DNA of 64,000 nucleotides from TPA_inf: Saccharomyces (Eukaryota): assembly GCA_000146045.2 (NCBI GenBank), contig BK006946.2, forward strand, positions 384,001-448,000, in the 5' to 3' direction. Made by a program: the position numbers and the translations under genes. Positions 4,822 through 58,090 of this stretch are shown here, piece by piece. Position 1 is the first letter of the stretch. The number at the start of each line of letters is the position of its first letter. The notes below the pieces were generated by a model. That model made no database searches. It saw only the letters and a list, made by a program, of their open reading frames with translations, and had not been told where the DNA came from.

Positions 4822-6732
4822 ATGACTAACGCTTTGCTCTCTATAGCCGTTTTGCTTTTCTCGATGCTCTCGCTAGCACAAGCGGAGACGCACACGTTTA
4901 ATTGGACCACTGGCTGGGACTACAGGAACGTTGATGGGCTAAAGAGCCGTCCCGTGATCACCTGTAATGGCCAGTTCCCATGGCCAGATATAACGGTCAA
5001 CAAAGGTGACCGTGTGCAGATTTACTTGACCAACGGAATGAACAACACCAATACTTCTATGCATTTCCACGGTCTCTTCCAAAACGGAACCGCCTCTATG
5101 GACGGTGTGCCCTTCTTGACGCAATGTCCAATTGCGCCAGGCAGTACTATGCTTTACAATTTCACGGTGGACTACAATGTAGGCACCTACTGGTACCATT
5201 CACACACGGACGGTCAATATGAAGACGGGATGAAAGGTCTTTTCATCATCAAGGATGATAGCTTCCCCTACGATTACGATGAGGAACTTTCTTTATCGCT
5301 TAGTGAGTGGTACCACGACTTGGTCACGGACTTGACGAAGTCGTTCATGAGTGTTTATAATCCGACAGGTGCTGAGCCCATCCCACAGAACTTGATTGTT
5401 AACAACACGATGAATCTGACATGGGAAGTCCAGCCCGATACGACGTATCTTTTGAGAATTGTCAACGTGGGTGGGTTCGTTTCGCAGTACTTTTGGATCG
5501 AGGACCACGAAATGACCGTGGTCGAAATCGACGGTATCACTACCGAGAAGAACGTAACGGATATGCTTTACATCACTGTCGCTCAGAGATATACAGTCCT
5601 GGTTCACACTAAAAACGACACGGACAAAAATTTCGCCATCATGCAGAAATTTGATGACACCATGTTGGATGTCATTCCAAGTGATTTACAGCTGAATGCA
5701 ACCTCTTATATGGTCTACAACAAAACCGCTGCGCTGCCCACACAAAATTACGTGGATTCAATTGATAACTTCTTGGACGATTTCTACTTGCAACCGTACG
5801 AGAAAGAAGCCATCTATGGCGAGCCAGATCATGTGATTACCGTTGACGTTGTTATGGATAACTTGAAAAACGGTGTGAATTACGCCTTCTTCAATAATAT
5901 CACCTATACTGCACCAAAAGTTCCTACTTTGATGACCGTTTTGTCTTCAGGTGATCAAGCAAACAACTCCGAAATCTACGGTTCAAACACGCACACTTTC
6001 ATCCTAGAGAAGGATGAAATCGTGGAGATTGTGCTAAATAACCAGGACACAGGTACCCATCCTTTCCATTTACATGGTCACGCTTTCCAAACCATCCAGA
6101 GAGATCGTACATATGATGATGCCCTAGGTGAAGTTCCTCACAGTTTCGATCCGGACAACCACCCTGCCTTCCCAGAATACCCAATGAGAAGAGATACTTT
6201 ATACGTTAGACCACAATCCAATTTCGTCATCAGGTTTAAAGCCGATAACCCAGGTGTTTGGTTCTTCCATTGTCATATCGAATGGCATTTGTTGCAAGGT
6301 TTGGGTCTTGTTCTCGTGGAGGATCCTTTTGGTATCCAAGATGCTCATTCTCAACAACTCAGTGAAAACCACTTAGAAGTTTGCCAGAGTTGCTCTGTGG
6401 CCACTGAAGGTAACGCCGCTGCCAATACACTGGATTTAACTGATTTAACTGGTGAAAATGTTCAGCATGCCTTCATTCCTACCGGTTTTACCAAAAAAGG
6501 TATTATTGCCATGACATTCTCCTGCTTTGCCGGTATTCTTGGTATTATCACAATTGCAATTTATGGTATGATGGATATGGAAGATGCGACCGAAAAGGTT
6601 ATTCGAGACTTGCACGTGGACCCTGAAGTCTTGCTAAATGAGGTTGATGAAAATGAAGAGCGTCAGGTAAACGAAGATCGTCATTCCACTGAAAAGCATC
6701 AATTTTTAACTAAAGCCAAACGGTTCTTCTAA
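4822..6732 (+). CDS. FET3: Multicopper ferroxidase of high-affinity iron uptake, 636 aa
   Basis: Multicopper-oxidase copper-ligand motifs are present (HFHG…, HSH…, HPFHLHGH, HCHIEWH). It has an N-terminal signal peptide and a C-terminal transmembrane segment. Confidence 0.92.
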   Translation: MTNALLSIAVLLFSMLSLAQAETHTFNWTTGWDYRNVDGLKSRPVITCNGQFPWPDITVNKGDRVQIYLTNGMNNTNTSMHFHGLFQNGTASMDGVPFLTQCPIAPGSTMLYNFTVDYNVGTYWYHSHTDGQYEDGMKGLFIIKDDSFPYDYDEELSLSLSEWYHDLVTDLTKSFMSVYNPTGAEPIPQNLIVNNTMNLTWEVQPDTTYLLRIVNVGGFVSQYFWIEDHEMTVVEIDGITTEKNVTDMLYITVAQRYTVLVHTKNDTDKNFAIMQKFDDTMLDVIPSDLQLNATSYMVYNKTAALPTQNYVDSIDNFLDDFYLQPYEKEAIYGEPDHVITVDVVMDNLKNGVNYAFFNNITYTAPKVPTLMTVLSSGDQANNSEIYGSNTHTFILEKDEIVEIVLNNQDTGTHPFHLHGHAFQTIQRDRTYDDALGEVPHSFDPDNHPAFPEYPMRRDTLYVRPQSNFVIRFKADNPGVWFFHCHIEWHLLQGLGLVLVEDPFGIQDAHSQQLSENHLEVCQSCSVATEGNAAANTLDLTDLTGENVQHAFIPTGFTKKGIIAMTFSCFAGILGIITIAIYGMMDMEDATEKVIRDLHVDPEVLLNEVDENEERQVNEDRHSTEKHQFLTKAKRFF

Positions 6733-7098
6733 TAAAGGAAGATCATGTATTTTGCGGTTAACCTGTTTTTTTTTTTTCGGTCAAGGGTTCCAAATGCATT
6801 TGCATGTAAAGTGAATGCCCTTGTCTTACTTAATATTACATAGACATATACTTAATAATCTACCACGTTTCAAATTCAATAATGCATGCTTCTTGGCGGT
6901 TTTTGACATGAGATCCTCATCTGTCACGAGGCTGATGTGCATACTTTTACTTTTAATCGATGACATGATCAGTTTCTTTTGAACAAAAAGCCGTTATGGG
7001 TTGAAAAAAAGTGAAAATGAAAAAGTCATCAGAAATATATGAAAGATATAATAAATTGTCGAAGAGAAATTACGTCGAGGAGGTTGAGGAAAATAAGA

Positions 7099-7485
7099 AT
7101 GGCAACGACAGATATCATATCTCTAGTAAAAAATAATTTACTCTATTTCCAAATGTGGACGGAAGTGGAAATTTTACAAGACGATTTATCATGGAAGGGA
7201 AATAGCCTGAGATTACTGAGAGGTCGTCCGCCTCACAAGCTGAGCAACGATGTAGACACAGAGCATGAAAATAGCTTGTCATCGCCACGCCCGCTAGAGT
7301 TCATATTACCCATCAATATGTCACAGTACAAAGAGAATTTTCTCACTTTGGAATGCTTGAGCCAGACATTTACTCACTTATGTAGTCCATCTACTGAAAG
7401 AATACTGCTGGCCATAATTAACGATGATGGTACAATTGTTTATTACTTCGTTTATAAAGGAGTACGAAAACCGAAAAGAAATTGA
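7099..7485 (+). CDS. SEN15: tRNA splicing endonuclease subunit, 128 aa; the start is taken at the internal Met, 20 codons into the ORF-track frame
   Basis: The ORF-track frame is 148 aa. The internal ATG at 7099 gives 128 aa, matching Sen15. The upstream extension is probably not translated. Confidence 0.7.
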
Positions 7486-7531
7486 AAAATGAACTTAAAG
7501 ACACCTTTCTGCATTATTTTGTTTATTTTTA

Positions 7532-8515
7532 TTATATGTATTTACAGGCTAAATTATATAATGACATCACAACGTTTCCTTGCTCTCTAAATTGAGGATC
7601 TCTTTGCTCCAAGTTATTACTTGGTCTATGGACGAAGTCATCAATTTTGTTCGACATACTATTCAATAATTCACTTCCAAAGGTTTGTTCCAGTTTTGAA
7701 CGGATGCGGTTACCATCAGGTAGGCCTAACTGAACGTAAAGATTTGCAAGGAAAAGAAGGTCGGAGGAAAGTATTACAGAATCATCCAGTTTTTTACGGG
7801 CAGCCAACCAATTGCTGACGCAACTCTGTAGTCTATTATCAAATTGAAGATTATATTTCACCTGTTGTAGCTCTTGCTTACCCTTAATTTTGTTCTTATG
7901 CGCAATTTTGAAGGTCTTTGATTGTGCTAGTTGCGAGGCTGACTCCATTGCTTTACTTTCTACAAATTCTTCATCATCCTCAAGGGTCAGTGAGCCTATA
8001 ATCTCCTCACAATTTTCACGTGCTTGCGATCTTAGTTGCAATGGCGTATTATACCACATAGGAAAATATAGCAATTTTGAAAACAACTTCTTGGTATATT
8101 CATTGTAATTTTTGGTGTTCAAAAAGAGCTGGTAGTCCGTTAGTCTGGAAATTTCAACGTCAACATAATTCAATAGGGAATACTCTAAAAGGCGATCCTT
8201 TTTTCTAACAATTGCTAAATCTTCTTCATAATCCGTACCTTTCTCATATTTGCTAGTACATATATTTTTATGTAAGAATTGTACGATGTTCACGTAACCA
8301 GATACTTTCGTTCCATTATCTAAAATTAACACTGGTAGTTTTCCATCTGATGATAGGTCTGTATTGTTTGAGAATACGATCTGCAATCCCGCAACCATAC
8401 TCTTTGCCTCTTCTGAAGTACATAACTTGATAAACCATACAAGCGCAATGCTGTCCACTGAAATCAACGATGCTTTGCCATCCTTTCCCCATAAATGCAC
8501 ACTACCTTTAACCAT
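7532..8515 (-). CDS. SAM37: Mitochondrial outer-membrane SAM complex subunit, 327 aa
   Basis: The 327-aa ORF has GST-like composition, and its length and position match Sam37/Mas37. Confidence 0.8.
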
Positions 8516-8754
8516 TACTGACTCGATAATAGCCTTGCTTTGCGTTTATTTGAAAAATACAAATTCCAGCATTAAATAGTAGCCATTCTAAATAGCTTAT
8601 TTCTTATTACATTTCCCACTTCGTTTAAAATGATAACAATCGTGACAAAATTGTCGGTTACCTTGTAATAATTAAGAAGAAAAGTGTAGCTTGTGTGATG
8701 AAAGAGTATTCTACAACGAAATAAAAGGCCAAACTGGAGAGTCAAACAAGAGAT

Positions 8755-10788
8755 ATGTCCAGCTCTACGACTCCTGATTTACTATATCCCTCTGCGGACA
8801 AAGTCGCAGAGCCTAGTGACAATATACATGGAGATGAACTACGACTTAGAGAAAGGATTAAAGACAATCCCACGAATATTTTATCATACTTCCAGCTTAT
8901 TCAATATTTGGAAACTCAAGAGTCATACGCTAAGGTGAGAGAAGTATACGAGCAATTTCATAACACATTCCCGTTTTATTCACCTGCGTGGACTTTGCAA
9001 CTAAAGGGTGAATTGGCAAGAGATGAATTTGAGACTGTTGAGAAGATTTTGGCTCAATGTCTTTCTGGCAAGTTGGAAAATAATGACCTATCTCTTTGGT
9101 CAACATATTTGGACTACATACGCAGAAAAAACAACTTAATTACTGGTGGACAAGAGGCGAGAGCTGTTATTGTCAAGGCATTCCAACTAGTTATGCAAAA
9201 GTGTGCAATTTTTGAACCCAAATCATCTTCTTTTTGGAACGAATATCTCAATTTTTTAGAGCAGTGGAAGCCATTCAACAAATGGGAGGAGCAACAGCGA
9301 ATTGACATGCTCAGAGAATTCTACAAGAAAATGCTATGTGTTCCTTTTGATAATCTAGAAAAAATGTGGAATAGATACACTCAATGGGAACAAGAAATAA
9401 ATTCCCTAACAGCCAGAAAATTTATTGGCGAGTTATCAGCCGAATACATGAAAGCCCGTTCCTTATACCAGGAATGGTTGAACGTTACTAATGGATTGAA
9501 AAGGGCATCTCCAATTAATCTGCGCACAGCAAACAAGAAAAACATACCACAACCAGGTACCTCAGACTCAAACATTCAGCAGTTACAGATTTGGTTGAAT
9601 TGGATAAAATGGGAAAGGGAGAATAAGTTGATGCTTAGTGAAGATATGCTATCACAAAGAATCAGTTACGTTTATAAACAAGGTATTCAATACATGATAT
9701 TTTCTGCTGAAATGTGGTACGATTATTCAATGTATATATCTGAAAATTCGGATCGACAAAATATCTTATATACTGCGTTATTAGCTAATCCCGACTCACC
9801 TTCTCTTACATTCAAGTTATCCGAATGCTACGAACTGGATAATGATTCTGAAAGTGTTTCTAACTGTTTTGACAAGTGCACTCAAACTTTACTATCGCAG
9901 TATAAAAAGATCGCCTCCGATGTAAATTCGGGTGAAGATAATAACACAGAGTATGAACAAGAGCTGCTATACAAACAGAGGGAAAAATTAACATTCGTGT
10001 TTTGCGTGTATATGAATACGATGAAAAGAATATCAGGACTATCCGCAGCACGTACTGTATTTGGTAAATGTCGTAAACTGAAGCGTATATTAACACATGA
10101 CGTCTACGTGGAAAATGCATATTTAGAATTTCAAAATCAAAACGATTATAAGACTGCTTTTAAGGTTTTAGAATTGGGTTTAAAATACTTCCAAAACGAT
10201 GGAGTTTATATCAACAAATACTTAGATTTTTTAATATTTTTAAATAAGGATTCGCAGATCAAAACCTTATTTGAAACATCAGTGGAAAAAGTGCAAGATT
10301 TAACCCAGCTGAAGGAAATATACAAGAAAATGATAAGTTATGAATCGAAATTCGGTAACTTAAACAACGTTTATTCTCTAGAGAAAAGATTTTTCGAACG
10401 GTTCCCCCAAGAAAATTTGATTGAAGTTTTCACAAGTCGTTATCAAATTCAAAACTCCAACTTAATAAAGAAATTAGAGTTAACTTATATGTATAATGAG
10501 GAAGAAGACAGTTACTTTTCTTCTGGAAACGGGGATGGCCATCATGGCTCTTACAATATGAGTTCGTCAGATAGAAAGAGACTAATGGAGGAAACTGGAA
10601 ACAATGGAAACTTCTCCAATAAGAAATTCAAAAGAGACTCAGAGCTTCCAACAGAGGTTCTTGATTTATTGAGCGTTATACCAAAACGTCAATATTTTAA
10701 TACAAATTTACTCGATGCGCAGAAATTGGTGAATTTTTTAAATGATCAAGTAGAGATTCCAACAGTTGAGAGCACCAAGTCAGGTTAA
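8755..10788 (+). CDS. RNA14: Cleavage/polyadenylation factor CF IA subunit (HAT/TPR repeats), 677 aa
   Basis: Repeated W/Y-rich HAT-type helical repeats (WxxYxxF…), with length 677 aa. Confidence 0.88.
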   Translation: MSSSTTPDLLYPSADKVAEPSDNIHGDELRLRERIKDNPTNILSYFQLIQYLETQESYAKVREVYEQFHNTFPFYSPAWTLQLKGELARDEFETVEKILAQCLSGKLENNDLSLWSTYLDYIRRKNNLITGGQEARAVIVKAFQLVMQKCAIFEPKSSSFWNEYLNFLEQWKPFNKWEEQQRIDMLREFYKKMLCVPFDNLEKMWNRYTQWEQEINSLTARKFIGELSAEYMKARSLYQEWLNVTNGLKRASPINLRTANKKNIPQPGTSDSNIQQLQIWLNWIKWERENKLMLSEDMLSQRISYVYKQGIQYMIFSAEMWYDYSMYISENSDRQNILYTALLANPDSPSLTFKLSECYELDNDSESVSNCFDKCTQTLLSQYKKIASDVNSGEDNNTEYEQELLYKQREKLTFVFCVYMNTMKRISGLSAARTVFGKCRKLKRILTHDVYVENAYLEFQNQNDYKTAFKVLELGLKYFQNDGVYINKYLDFLIFLNKDSQIKTLFETSVEKVQDLTQLKEIYKKMISYESKFGNLNNVYSLEKRFFERFPQENLIEVFTSRYQIQNSNLIKKLELTYMYNEEEDSYFSSGNGDGHHGSYNMSSSDRKRLMEETGNNGNFSNKKFKRDSELPTEVLDLLSVIPKRQYFNTNLLDAQKLVNFLNDQVEIPTVESTKSG

Positions 10789-50787: not shown

Positions 50788-51915
50788 ATGTTGAGAACGT
50801 CAACATTGTTCACCAGGCGTGTCCAACCAAGCCTATTTTCTAGAAACATTCTTAGATTGCAATCCACAGCTGCAATCCCTAAGACTCAAAAAGGTGTCAT
50901 CTTTTATGAGAATAAGGGGAAGCTGCATTACAAAGATATCCCTGTCCCCGAGCCTAAGCCAAATGAAATTTTAATCAACGTTAAATATTCTGGTGTATGT
51001 CACACCGATTTACATGCTTGGCACGGCGATTGGCCATTACCTGTTAAACTACCATTAGTAGGTGGTCATGAAGGTGCTGGTGTAGTTGTCAAACTAGGTT
51101 CCAATGTCAAGGGCTGGAAAGTCGGTGATTTAGCAGGTATCAAATGGCTGAACGGTTCTTGTATGACATGCGAATTCTGTGAATCAGGTCATGAATCAAA
51201 TTGTCCAGATGCTGATTTATCTGGTTACACTCATGATGGTTCTTTCCAACAATTTGCGACCGCTGATGCTATTCAAGCCGCCAAAATTCAACAGGGTACC
51301 GACTTGGCCGAAGTAGCCCCAATATTATGTGCTGGTGTTACTGTATATAAAGCACTAAAAGAGGCAGACTTGAAAGCTGGTGACTGGGTTGCCATCTCTG
51401 GTGCTGCAGGTGGCTTGGGTTCCTTGGCCGTTCAATATGCAACTGCGATGGGTTACAGAGTTCTAGGTATTGATGCAGGTGAGGAAAAGGAAAAACTTTT
51501 CAAGAAATTGGGGGGTGAAGTATTCATCGACTTTACTAAAACAAAGAATATGGTTTCTGACATTCAAGAAGCTACCAAAGGTGGCCCTCATGGTGTCATT
51601 AACGTTTCCGTTTCTGAAGCCGCTATTTCTCTATCTACGGAATATGTTAGACCATGTGGTACCGTCGTTTTGGTTGGTTTGCCCGCTAACGCCTACGTTA
51701 AATCAGAGGTATTCTCTCATGTGGTGAAGTCCATCAATATCAAGGGTTCTTATGTTGGTAACAGAGCTGATACGAGAGAAGCCTTAGACTTCTTTAGCAG
51801 AGGTTTGATCAAATCACCAATCAAAATTGTTGGATTATCTGAATTACCAAAGGTTTATGACTTGATGGAAAAGGGCAAGATTTTGGGTAGATACGTCGTC
51901 GATACTAGTAAATAA
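50788..51915 (+). CDS. ADH3: Mitochondrial zinc-dependent alcohol dehydrogenase, 375 aa
   Basis: An N-terminal mitochondrial presequence, the zinc-ADH signature GHEGAGVVV, the Cys ligands CHTDLH, and the NAD-binding motif GAAGGLG. Confidence 0.93.
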
Positions 51916-52627: not shown

Positions 52628-53416
52628 ATGTGTGGCATTTTTGGCTATTGCAATTTTTTAATTGAGAAGACAAGAGGAGAAATCATCGACACTTTAATCG
52701 AAGGGTTACAGGCATTGGAGTACAAGGAATATGACTCCAGTGGAATTTCGATCCAAGGTGATGAGCTGGAGTCTCTCAATATTTATAAGCAAACCGGTAA
52801 AATAAGCAGTTTGAAGGAAGAAATCGACCTTTACAATCTTAATAAGAACCTGCCCTTTATTTCGCATTGTGGCATTGCCCATACTAGGCGGGCAACACAT
52901 GGAGGGCTAAGACGTGCAAATTGTCATCCACATAACTCAGATCCATCTAATGAATTTGTTGTGGTACACAACGGGGTTATTACCAACTTCGCTAATTTGA
53001 AAGCCTTATTGATGGCAAAGGGCTATGTGTTCAAAAGTGACACTGATACCGAATGTATTCCTAAACTGTACAAACACATTTATGATACAAGCATTGAACT
53101 CGGGTACAACCTCGATTTCCATGTATTAACAAATTTAGTACTTAAAGAATTGGAAGGCTCTTATGGTCTGCTATGCACTTCTTCTCATTTTCCCGATGAA
53201 GTGGTTGCCGCAAGAAAGGGTTCCCCGTTAGTTATTGGTGTTAAAGGTAAAACTGACATGGACGTAAACTTTGTCGAGGTGGAATATTTGGATCAAGAAG
53301 AAGACTACTTGAAGCTTAATACTCAAACCAAGAGTTCTGGTAATGTCTTGGCTGCCGCACCTGTAAAATATAACACTTGTTTAAGGAAGTCACCCCCCTT
53401 CGTTCACAATACCTGA
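52628..53416 (+). pseudogene. N-terminal (class-II glutaminase) portion of a GFA1-like glutamine:fructose-6-P amidotransferase paralog, truncated by a frameshift (YMR084W)
   Basis: MCGIFGY… has the catalytic Cys2 of Ntn-type amidotransferases. The frame ends at 53416, and the homologous reading frame continues in another phase (see 53377-54789). Confidence 0.8.
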
Positions 53417-54789
53417 GAAACTCTACAACTTCTACATTCAATCATGGCTCATCCACAGAAACGCCAGCCGAGAACGGCTTGCCGCGACCCATGGAATTCT
53501 ATTTGTCATCCGATTGTGCATCACTAGCGCGGTATGTGAGTAAAGTAGTATATTTGGAGGATAATGATATTGCCCATATCTATGATGGGGAGCTTCATAT
53601 CCATTGTTCTAAAATTGGTTCCGAGGACTTTTCATTTAGAACAGTTCAAAAATTAGAATTGGAGTTGTCCAAAATCAAAAAAGGCCCTTACGATAATTTT
53701 ATGCAAAAGGAAATATACGAGCAGTGTGAAACAACAAAAAATGTCATGAGAGGAAGAGTTGACGCCTTTACAAACAGAGTAGTTTTGGGAGGACTAGAAA
53801 ATTGGTTGACAGAATTGAGAAGAGCAAAACGAATAATAATGATTGCATCCAAGGCCTCCTTCCATTCATGCCTAGCTGCCCGTCCCATCTTTGAGGAGTT
53901 AATGGAAGTTCCAGTAAACGTTGAATTGGCCTTGGATTTTGTTGACCGCAATTGTTGCATTTTCAGGAACGATGTTTGCATATTTGTTTCTCGAAGTGGG
54001 GAGACAACTGATACAATTAATGCTTTGAACTACTGTATCAAAAAAGAGGCAGTCACAATCGGGGTAGTTAATTGCAGCGGTTCCTCTATCTCAAGATTTA
54101 CACATTGCGGTGTTCATACAAACACAGGCCCCGAGAAAGGTATTGCAACAACCAAGTCTTATACTTCTCAATACATCGCTTTAGTCATGATTGCCCTATG
54201 GATGTCGGAAGATTTGGTGTCTAAAATAGAAAGGAGGAAAGAAATAATTCAAGCCTTAACTATAGTCCCAAGCCAAATAAAAGAAGTTTTGGAGCTTGAA
54301 CCATTGATTATTGAATTGTGTGACAAGAAACTAAAACAGCATGATACATTTTTGCTTTTAGGAAGAGGTTACCAATTTGCCTCTGCTTTGGAAGGCGCCT
54401 CGAAGATGAAAGAAATTTCTTACGTGCATTCTGAAAGTATTCTTACCAACGAGCTAGGACACAGAGTCCTAGCTGTGGCATCTGATAATCCGCCAATTAT
54501 CGCCTTTGCGACAAAGGATGCTTTTTCGCCCAAAATCGCGTCTTGCATTGACCAAATAATAGAAAGGAAGGGCAATCCGATTATCATTTGTAACAAGGGG
54601 CATAAGATATGGGAGCAAGACAAACAAAAAGGAAACGTTGTTACACTCGAGGTACCCCAAACCGTAGATTGTCTCCAAGGGATACTTAACGTTATTCCTT
54701 TACAATTAATTTCTTACTGGTTAGCGATCAAGAAAGACATCGGAGTTGATTTGCCAAGGGACTCGGCGATGTCGGCCCCGGATATATAA
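53377..54789 (+). pseudogene. C-terminal (tandem SIS sugar-isomerase) portion of the same GFA1-like paralog (YMR085W; first ATG at 53491)
   Basis: GFA1-like sequence (…EFYLSSDCASLARYVSKVVYLEDNDIAHIYDGELHIH…) starts before the first Met of this frame. The frame is offset by 1 nt relative to YMR084W, and the two frames overlap at 53377-53416. Confidence 0.8.
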
Positions 54790-55207: not shown

Positions 55208-58090
55208 ATGTTTAGAAGAAGAACAACTGCACCAGAAATGGAACAGGCGGACCCGACAGCAGTGGCAGCTGCAGCAAGTATCGGTAAATTATTAATGAAG
55301 AAGGGTAATCAATCTGATAACGAACAAAGGCCGACCTATCGATCCGCTTCGATGACAAACTTAAGAAAACCTTCTGCCCCCAAAAGAATGTCTTCTATTT
55401 CTAGTATATCATCGGAATCTAGAAGGAGCGATGGTAAAGGTCGTCCCGGGAAAATAAACAGCCTTACCCAACGGTCATCAATGGGGAAGGGAGATTCATT
55501 AAATTCTCCTTTAACGAAGGAACCGCAGCACAAAACTAGGTCTCACAATAGAACTTCGAGTCTCCCTAACCAGAGAGGTCAGCAAAGCAGAAACAGTTCT
55601 GGTTTACAACGTCAAAAGTCCAAAACACACCAAAGAATAAGCTATGATGAGGCTCAACGTACGTTCAAGGATTTTGGCGGACCACAGGCCAGAGGAATTT
55701 TAACGGGACAACACCGTACTGAAAATCCTAGCGGGTCTATTCCTTTGAGGACTACGCGAAAGTATATTCCTGGGCCCAACGGGCTGGTTGCAATTGAGGT
55801 CCCCGTTGAAAAACCAAGCAATGCCAATACTTCTAAATTGCTAAGGCGTTCCAACTCTGCCCACAGTGCCTTGAATGCAAGAAATGGTTCACTTTTAAGA
55901 AAAAAAGTATCGCAGGAATCTTTACATTCTCAACCAAAGAAGACTTCGTCTTTAGGGAATACATCAAGTACACAAGCAAAAAAAGGCCAAAAGGCGGTTC
56001 AGGAGAGAAATCTTGCCAAGAAACATCCAATAAATTCAAATGTTCCTCTCATTGAAACACAAGTTCGTGAAGAAACAGACCAAGAGTTGAAACTTGATAA
56101 TTCTAACTCTTCCGAATCCGAAACAGTAGTCAATAGCGAAAATAATCTAGAAAAACCTTCTTCACTAAACATTGAAAAAGATGATCTAAGCAAACTAATA
56201 CATGAAAACATTGAGTTAGAAAGTTTTATTGAAGAAAAAGGGAAGGAAAAACCTTTAAATTCTGATCAAGAAGATGTTTTCATAAGCGAAAAAACTGTAA
56301 AAGGCGATGTACAATGGCCAAAAAATAACCGTCAAGCATCTACTCTTGAGAAAACTTTTAATTACGACAACGAAGAGAAGAGGGAGGGGAATAAACCAGT
56401 AGCAGAACATCCTCTTCCGGAGGCCGAAGTGGATGACAAGTCGGTTGAACAACTGAACAACATTTCTTCTAGCGGCAGTTATTCGGCCCAAGGATCAGTT
56501 GAAAACTCCAAACCAGAAAATGGCAATAAAAATCTAGAGAATGACACAACATCGTCTCCCACACAAGACCTTGATGAAAAATCCCGCTCAATAGAAGAGA
56601 AGGATACCTTGGAAGGGACCGAGAGTTCAAAAAAAGTTGAAAAGCCAGACAATTGTTGTGAGAAAATTTCTGGTGCTAATACTTCTTCCAAAAAAGGGAA
56701 TGTTGGCGATACTAAGGATGAATTCTTCGATACAGTAGAAGAAAGCGATCAGAAAACGAGCAAGTCGAATTCCTCCAAGAACACCGATCATTCTAATCAA
56801 ACAGAACCAACGCCTTCTTTGGCTCAGTATTTAAGGACCTCAAATACCTACCTTTCTCGAAAAAACCAATCGAAACAAGCTGAGCAAGAAAAGTTTCACA
56901 AGCCTGAAGCTCCTATGGTTCCTGTAACGAAAGTAGTTACACCAATCAAATCTGCTCTTAAAAAATCGTCAGGATCGTCCAACCATGACTCATCCATGTA
57001 CTCTGATAACTCTCCCGCCAATGGCGCATACCTGTCTCTTACGACTGCTGAAAATACGAGATTAAATGCTCAAATGACGATGTCCGACAGCGTATCACGC
57101 AGAGCAAGTTTAAAACGATCTTCTATAAAAAGACCTCAGTCAGTAGGCCAGTTCAGAAGCATCAGATCAAATTCGCCTTCTCCCCCAGAGAAAATAAACA
57201 ATAAACGCCATTCTGCTATACCCCTAGGAACCCCAGAGAAGGGTAAACCAAAAAGAAATTCGGTTATGGCTTCTCTGTCTAAAAATTCGCAGCAAATTCA
57301 AGAGCCCGCAAGTGTATATGAGTCAAATGGCCCAAATAAACCTAAAAACCAAATCAATAAGAATATAAAGAGAGGATCACAGATCGCGCAAAACAATAAA
57401 CCTTCAACGAAGGACATGAATAGTATTTTGTACCCCAAAGAACCACCTCCTCGCAAATCTAGTTTTGAGAAGACGAGAAGCAATGAATCCCATCTCGGAT
57501 TTAAAAAGCTTTCTTTGAGAAATGGTAATTTTGAGGAGGCATTGAGTGAAAGCTATAATGGGCAAGCTAGCCAGAATAGCACAAATGTGAATCGAACCGA
57601 TACAGCACAGGAGTTTTTCAAATATTTGGGTCATTCATCAAGATTTGCGGATTCAGACTCAGAAGATGAGTCCCAATTTTTCAACCAAGGCCCATCAAAA
57701 TACAACACAGAAACAGAAGGCAATAAAACCAGCGGTAACAAAAATAGTAATGGTGGTAACGGTGCTTTTTCGCTTTTCAAGAGCAAAAGTAAGCAAAAGG
57801 AAAATAATGTGGTTTCCCCTGGAGTCTCAAGTCCTAATCATACTACCACCGATCCTGCCATTACAAGTAAAAAGGTGGACAAGAAATTCAGCGGGTTATC
57901 TTTAAGAGCTGCCAGTGAAGCTGAACCTGCAAAAAATTCAAACCCTTCGATGACCAATAGGTTACGCTTCTCTAGTAATCCAGAGAACGGCGAAAGCAGG
58001 CTCCCACAAGCACAGGAAGTCAGCGTTACAAAAGAAAAGAAGGGTAGTTTCGGCAAAAAACTGAAAAAAATCTTTGGTAGAAAGAAATAG
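55208..58090 (+). CDS. SEG1: Ser/Thr/Asn-rich, largely disordered eisosome-associated protein, 960 aa
   Basis: A 960-aa low-complexity ORF with a basic C-terminal tail. Length and position match Seg1. Confidence 0.75.

Follow-up and report, generated by a model that had tools for sequence, protein, structure and literature searches.

The glutamine:fructose-6-phosphate amidotransferase-like sequence at positions 52628-54789 (plus strand) of a 64,000-nucleotide stretch of Saccharomyces cerevisiae chromosome XIII (contig BK006946.2, positions 384,001 to 448,000; hereafter the window) is distributed over two overlapping open reading frames (ORFs). This raises the question of whether the locus holds one gene broken by a mutation, one gene read through a recoding event, or two separately used halves. 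We assign a probability of about 0.93 to the reading that the window carries the S288C-type allele of an ohnolog of the chitin-pathway gene GFA1, in which a polymorphic frameshift, the shortening of a run of seven C residues to six (C7 to C6), splits a 720-amino-acid (aa) gene. No counter-evidence to this insertion/deletion (indel) explanation was found.

ORF1 occupies 52628-53416 on the plus strand (frame mod3 = 2), starts with MCGIFGY and encodes 262 aa. ORF2 occupies 53377-54789 on the same strand (frame mod3 = 1) and encodes 470 aa counted from a TTG codon. The ORF2 frame is -1 relative to that of ORF1, begins 3′ of a TAA at 53371-53373, and shares the 40 bp from 53377 to 53416 with ORF1, which reads five out-of-frame codons (FVHNT) past the frameshift and then stops. 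Both sets of coordinates, the one-nucleotide difference between the frames and the 40-bp overlap had been given in an earlier note made from the nucleotide sequence alone, and all were reproduced. The ORF1 product generated hits on class-II glutamine amidotransferase models (GATase_6, E = 1.1e-13; GATase_7, E = 3.3e-10), and the ORF2 product matched the SIS family (PF01380, E = 9.5e-50) in two stretches, that is, the tandem SIS isomerase/synthase domain that the same note had placed in the second frame. These matches are far beyond chance. The SIS part of the repaired protein (see below) could be aligned over its full length to the isomerase domains of 2poc, 6r4e and 1moq. One detail of the note was misplaced: the GFA1-like stretch EFYLSSDCASLARYVSK, described as lying upstream of M39 of ORF2, in fact lies directly 3′ of it, and the residues ahead of M39 (PLRSQYLRNS...) belong to a poorly conserved loop with homology limited to the orthologs of this paralog.

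The ORF1 product was identical at every residue to NP_013801.1 (YMR084W of strain S288C, 'putative glutamine--fructose-6-phosphate transaminase'). The part of ORF2 that starts at its earliest ATG (53491-54789, 432 aa) was likewise identical to NP_013802.1, 'hypothetical protein YMR085W' of S288C (UniProt P0CF18). The window thus represents the reference-type allele, and the split is an already known, annotated feature of the yeast genome, which could also be recognized from the raw sequence alone. Its earlier recognition is evident from the source names of the clustered proteins: the full-length proteins of RM11-1a (720 aa) and YJM789 (714 aa), both named 'Putative glutamine--fructose-6-phosphate aminotransferase [isomerizing]', fell into the same 90% identity cluster as the 720-aa protein of many S. 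cerevisiae strains (P0001), and the C-terminal half in EC1118 is labelled 'PUTATIVE PSEUDOGENE'. SGD likewise describes YMR084W and YMR085W as merged in related strains and as together paralogous to GFA1 through the whole-genome duplication. No analysis of the frameshift was found in the papers located that name these ORFs, and neither a pseudogene survey (PMC2876123) nor a core-gene-set preprint discusses the locus. What is added here is the exact site of the C6/C7 difference, an independent eight-C (C8) allele, estimates of selection, and a tabulation of the catalytic residues.

A one-base difference in a run of C residues

The run CCCCCC at 53393-53398 is the sole homopolymer of at least five bases within 53300-53500. 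Addition of one C to it generated an uninterrupted 720-aa ORF across 52628-54789, in which the run reads TCA CCC CCC CTT CGT (S-P-P-L-R). The encoded protein was 59% identical to Gfa1, and the two ORFs are collinear with a single Gfa1-like protein, as the earlier note had assumed. It was identical to P0001 at 717 of the 720 residues, differing by E48K, M129V and N608D. In DNA alignments with the same locus from six other S. cerevisiae strains, all of which carry C7 and a continuous 720-aa ORF, the only indel within the gene was C6 in the window versus C7 in the others.

The comparison with other species gave the direction of the change. Intact syntenic ORFs with C7 were found in S. paradoxus (724 aa), S. 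mikatae (719 aa) and S. uvarum (723 aa). In all three, as at every related locus, the upstream neighbour is the ADH3-type gene, and SEG1 follows on the downstream side in S. mikatae and in S. uvarum; the contig of S. paradoxus stops short of the SEG1 position. As three sister species carry C7, C7 and the continuous frame represent the ancestral state, from which the window differs by a deletion of 1 bp, most likely brought about by replication slippage in the C7 run. The single long ORF that the note had suggested looking for in other assemblies was therefore present, both within S. cerevisiae and in the sister species.

The C6 allele is a real and widespread polymorphism. The exact 262-aa ORF1 product was recorded on 279 contigs and in 345 index blocks, and C6 was found in all ten independent assemblies in which the run was read, including NCBI records of complete chromosomes and a metagenome assembly from ENA. 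This sharing by many independent assemblies takes sequencing error out of consideration. C6 also resides on a haplotype of its own, linked to E48, M129 and several synonymous sites, the 3′ half of which has recombined with C7-type haplotypes, as would be expected of an established population allele. The note's description of a 'strain-specific inactivating indel' therefore holds in that strains differ by C6 versus C7, but the allele extends well beyond one strain. The strain loci were sampled by exact protein identity, so they provide no allele frequencies, and the 16 synonymous and 10 non-synonymous sites counted within the species represent a biased sample from which pN/pS (the ratio of non-synonymous to synonymous polymorphism) is biased as well.

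C6 is not the only disabling length variant. From the third frame, a C8 allele had been predicted to encode a 305-aa N-terminal ORF, and exactly this ORF was observed with C8 in EC1118 and three Illumina assemblies, on a haplotype other than that of C6. The C8 allele thus breaks the gene independently of C6. Two further variants were seen at the protein level only: a 263-aa protein ending in ...KSPPPFVHNT, which would imply a run of nine C residues, and a 299-aa protein, which would imply a separate frameshift about 25 codons further 3′.

Other ORF pairs of S288C are likewise single genes in other strains, for example AQY2 (YLL052C/YLL053C) and SDC25 (YLL016W/YLL017W). There, as here, an ancestral ORF is divided by a strain-polymorphic frameshift or nonsense mutation, so that the reference annotation shows two neighbouring ORFs. 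The present locus differs from these cases in that the change is one of homopolymer length, which disables the gene in at least two independent alleles (C6 and C8), and in that the gene lacked catalytic residues before it was split.

Origin, selection and active-site residues of the paralog

The gene directly downstream of GFA1, which encodes 1128 aa in the same orientation (L024:8792-12178), was homologous (BLASTP E = 9e-19) to the 960-aa gene at 55208-58090, which follows the paralog in the window. As SEG-like homologs follow both GFA1 and the paralog, the two loci form a two-gene duplicated block, as expected of whole-genome-duplication partners. The two members have since evolved at very different rates: between S. 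cerevisiae and S. uvarum, identity was 96.2% for GFA1 versus 69.7% for the paralog, and identity to pre-duplication yeasts (P0074, P0048) was about 85-86% versus about 58-59%. Across the genus, amino-acid evolution of the paralog was roughly eight times faster than that of GFA1.

Fast evolution was accompanied by purifying selection. Between species, the ratio of non-synonymous to synonymous substitution rates (dN/dS) was 0.13-0.17 for the whole paralog, 0.07-0.12 for the glutaminase core, 0.12-0.19 for the SIS region and 0.28-0.41 for the loop between residues 216 and 288 described below; the neighbouring genes, analysed for comparison, gave 0.01-0.03 (ADH3) and 0.21-0.23 (SEG1). The intact paralog is thus under purifying selection between species, with dN/dS of about 0.15. 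A genus-wide neutral pseudogene was ruled out by this value together with the intact ORFs of the three sister species.

Active-site residues were examined against the E. coli GlmS sequence, checked against 4amv and used for numbering; E. coli GlmS and 114 other Gfa1/GlmS sequences (115 in total) were compared with the paralogs of S. cerevisiae, S. paradoxus, S. mikatae and S. uvarum. The overall organization is that of GFA1 (YKL104C), GlmS and human GFAT1 (EC 2.6.1.16), namely an N-terminal nucleophile (Ntn) glutaminase beginning with Cys1, followed by two SIS domains, and the repaired protein matched human GFAT1 structures with E = 3.7e-179 and E. coli GlmS with E = 4.8e-88. Cys1 directly follows the initiator Met in the paralog (MCGIFGY), as in an Ntn glutaminase, and all glutaminase catalytic and binding residues are retained (Cys1, Arg73, Thr76, His77, Asn98, Gly99 and Asp123). 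The isomerase domain retains Ser303, Ser347, Ser349, Thr352, Lys485 and Glu488.

Other positions were changed although they are invariant in 115 of the 115 other sequences (114 of 115 for K603). R26K was found in the paralogs of all four species, T302A in S. cerevisiae, S. paradoxus and S. uvarum, and K603M in S. cerevisiae, S. paradoxus and S. mikatae. W74R, at the gating/channel residue Trp74, Q348R and S401T were shared by S. cerevisiae and S. paradoxus. Position 503 was K503G in S. cerevisiae and K503E in S. paradoxus; H504R occurred in S. paradoxus and S. mikatae, and G505R in S. cerevisiae. The orthologs of S. uvarum and S. eubayanus retain Trp74, Gln348, His504 and Lys603. The loss of Lys603 is evident at the C-terminus of YMR085W, which reads PRDSAMSAPDI versus PRNLAKSVTVE in GFA1 and GlmS; in the HMMER alignment to human GFAT1, prdsaMs is placed opposite prnlaKs. 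Glu488, His504 and Lys603 are highly conserved catalytic residues of the isomerase site (PMC9272926), and this triad is incomplete in S. cerevisiae, which keeps Glu488 and His504 and has Met in place of Lys603. The fructose-6-phosphate binding set together with Trp74 is likewise incomplete (T302A, Q348R and W74R).

These changes in invariant isomerase-site residues make it unlikely that even the intact protein of the S. cerevisiae lineage acts as a normal glucosamine-6-phosphate (GlcN-6-P) synthase, and it is probably not a canonical, redundant one; this would explain why its breakage is tolerated and recurrent. The paralog thus differs from GFA1 both in being split here and in the replacements at Lys603, Trp74, Gln348, Thr302 and Arg26, and it is unable to replace GFA1 in S288C-type strains (PMC11704421). 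The 'decaying' second copy proposed in the earlier note is thus largely borne out, with eroded isomerase catalytic residues, but is incomplete in that purifying selection still acts on the intact gene between species.

A second form of decay was found in S. kudriavzevii. Its syntenic gene, SKDZ_13G2110, encodes 384 aa both in two assemblies, including that of ZP591, and in Illumina contigs; the ORF spans the complete glutaminase domain and ends where the isomerase domain begins (ZP591, L026:5001-7200). The approximately 1 kb 3′ of it is a partly deleted isomerase remnant with at least 11 stops per frame, recovered by tblastn as pieces in three frames with 28-48% identity. The remnant reads ...SPRDPAMSAKG and thus carries K603M, indicating that K603M is older than the split between S. 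kudriavzevii and the S. cerevisiae lineage. The dN/dS of the S. kudriavzevii glutaminase core versus the other species was 0.09-0.13, no higher than among species with an intact gene. Lineage-specific non-synonymous/synonymous counts were 20/14 for S. kudriavzevii and 13/14 for S. mikatae, with synonymous sites saturated. The dN/dS of the core hints that the remaining selection may be located mainly in the glutaminase domain.

The ohnolog at this locus may be either degenerating or repurposed. Tentatively, it could have acquired a new purpose as a non-canonical protein, either a pseudo-GFAT or a glutaminase-centred one, though we consider this possible rather than probable. Lys603 would then have been lost in the common ancestor of S. 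cerevisiae, S. paradoxus, S. mikatae and S. kudriavzevii, and further isomerase-site residues would have followed in lineage-specific ways, while purifying selection would have persisted for millions of years, strongest on the glutaminase domain that stands alone as 384 aa in S. kudriavzevii. The C7 run would serve as a mutational hotspot by which those S. cerevisiae lineages that can do without the accessory function repeatedly lose it (C6, C8). The mildly new elements at this locus are that residues were lost while purifying selection continued, and that S. kudriavzevii has a glutaminase-only ORF. The intact 720-aa protein is still selected, yet lacks the lysine kept by all but one of the GlcN-6-P synthases examined.

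Possible products of the split allele

In the window, the loss of one C from the ancestral amidotransferase-like ORF causes a -1 shift after residue 257 with a stop five codons on, leaving the remaining 463 codons stranded in another frame. The break falls inside a loop specific to eukaryotes, at about residues 216-288, by which the glutaminase domain is interrupted. E. coli GlmS 186-604 aligned to residues 290-716 of the repaired protein, and the crystallized E. coli glutaminase domain (1xff) comprises 240 residues; as GlmS 186-240 aligns from residue 290 on, the glutaminase fold has its last approximately 50 residues in ORF2. ORF1 thus contains the N-terminal three quarters of a class-II (Ntn, Cys1) glutaminase domain plus part of the loop, which refines the note's assignment of the glutaminase domain to ORF1: the assignment stands for most of the domain, but not for its end. 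YMR085W contains the final strands of the glutaminase domain and both SIS domains. Glutaminase and SIS domains, which the ammonia channel requires in a single polypeptide, are joined in the C7 strains and the sister species but not in the window.

As ORF1 lacks the last strands and ORF2 starts at an internal ATG behind a 262-codon ORF, C6 is predicted to be a loss-of-function allele; from its position, ORF2 would have neither a promoter nor a start of its own apart from that ATG. Loss of function agrees with the phenotype of gfa1 mutants, which are auxotrophic for glucosamine in strains carrying the split allele and because of which YMR084W was dropped from the GlcN-6-P synthase reaction in a yeast metabolic model (PMC11704421). 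The outcome would be a tolerated loss-of-function allele of a fast-evolving ohnolog whose canonical catalytic residues had already gone.

Several published observations weigh against a simple dead pseudogene. Transcripts of both ORFs are inducible and co-regulated: among other values, induction by high-pressure CO2 was 7.1-fold for YMR084W and 5.4-fold for YMR085W (PMC9605315), and both were down-regulated in carriers of L-A virus (PMC9028071), a pattern that fits one transcription unit. Deletion of ymr085w improved growth in several proteotoxicity models, which the authors interpreted as loss of the GFAT step (PMC8958550); this interpretation is doubtful, since the allele is split and its active site eroded. 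YMR085W protein was also listed in a peptide-mass-fingerprint study (PMC9462545), which is weak evidence.

These deletion phenotypes and the fingerprint identification of P0CF18 would also favour a split allele that is not null, one or both halves acting as separate polypeptides, either a SIS protein initiated at the ATG at 53491 or a glutaminase fragment. The open N-terminal ORF of S. kudriavzevii, with its constrained core and degraded isomerase half, points the same way, as does the stability of the E. coli glutaminase domain, which was crystallized on its own. However, ORF1 leaves the gene's frame at residue 257, short of the last glutaminase strands, whereas the S. kudriavzevii ORF holds the whole domain, and a separate ORF2 product would depend on internal initiation, a rare event in yeast, behind a 262-codon ORF. 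Deletion phenotypes can be caused by neighbouring genes, and the source strain of the fingerprinted protein could carry either allele. We therefore regard active halves as improbable and the null allele as the better account. Treating YMR084W/YMR085W as a working GFAT isozyme in metabolic models and deletion screens is probably wrong for S288C-derived strains (PMC11704421; PMC8958550).

Considerably less likely is the synthesis of a full-length protein from the C6 allele by programmed -1 ribosomal frameshifting or by transcriptional slippage on the C run. The arrangement of two overlapping ORFs in the 0 and -1 frames resembles that of programmed -1 sites such as L-A virus gag-pol, the two halves are co-expressed, and tRNA-Pro in the P site, paired with the second CCC, could slip to the CCC at -1 with CUU as the next codon, which would restore the ancestral ...SPPLRS... 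exactly. The features of such sites were nevertheless lacking. Recoding would have to occur within the 43 nt from 53374 to 53416, where the zero-frame codons TCA CCC CCC TTC GTT CAC AAT ACC TGA offer no heptamer of the X XXY YYZ type. No stable RNA structure was predicted 3′ of the C run, the 122 nt at 53399-53520 folding at -19.6 kcal/mol versus a shuffle mean of -20.1 (z = +0.18). No conserved frameshift arrangement exists either, the sister species and many other strains reading a plain single frame, and the C8 allele would require the opposite shift. A run of six C residues is too short for efficient polymerase slippage. Low-background slippage of tRNA-Pro on CCC CCC may occur, and nothing suggests that any slippage is programmed; the earlier note, too, had rated programmed frameshifting the less likely of its options.

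An intron joining the two frames was also considered and rejected. No 5′ splice site precedes the ORF1 stop, and 53250-53800 contains no TACTAAC branch point. The sole GTATGT, the consensus yeast 5′ splice-site hexamer, lies 3′ of the ORF1 stop at 53532-53537 in conserved coding sequence (ARYVSK) and is probably a coincidence, given the absence of TACTAAC from 53250-53800.

A sequencing or assembly artefact hiding a true C7 with a continuous frame, the remaining option of the earlier note, can be dismissed almost entirely: although 454 and nanopore data are error-prone at homopolymer runs and neighbouring gene calls are fragmented in the long-read assembly GCA_030035835.1, the 262-aa product recurs on its 279 contigs, the ten independent assemblies agree on C6, and the allele has its own linked single-nucleotide polymorphisms and recombinant 3′ halves.

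Neighbouring genes and atypical database entries

Two neighbours served as synteny anchors. Upstream, on the plus strand at 50788-51915, lies a gene for an ADH3-type mitochondrial alcohol dehydrogenase of 375 aa; downstream, on the same strand, the 960-aa gene at 55208-58090 encodes a SEG1-type protein without a Pfam domain. The two SEG-like genes that follow GFA1 and the paralog have diverged strongly, with 36% identity over 236 residues and a conserved 34-residue motif.

In GCA_030035835.1, ADH3 was called as 243 aa (2160-2891) and SEG1 (6582-9466) as three pieces of 614, 80 and 224 aa. These fragmented calls are probably assembly indel errors, so homopolymer calls of such long-read assemblies need Illumina support. 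P0002, from strain ASN (676 aa), lacks 44 residues of the glutaminase domain (about 61-104), including the HTRRATHG motif; the gap is either a genuine in-frame deletion or the product of a wrongly called intron. Seg1p entries of 949-961 aa were also placed in the 90% identity cluster of the 720-aa protein, which looks like a quirk of the clustering and may stem from fused gene models; these entries display a length polymorphism of SEG1 between strains.

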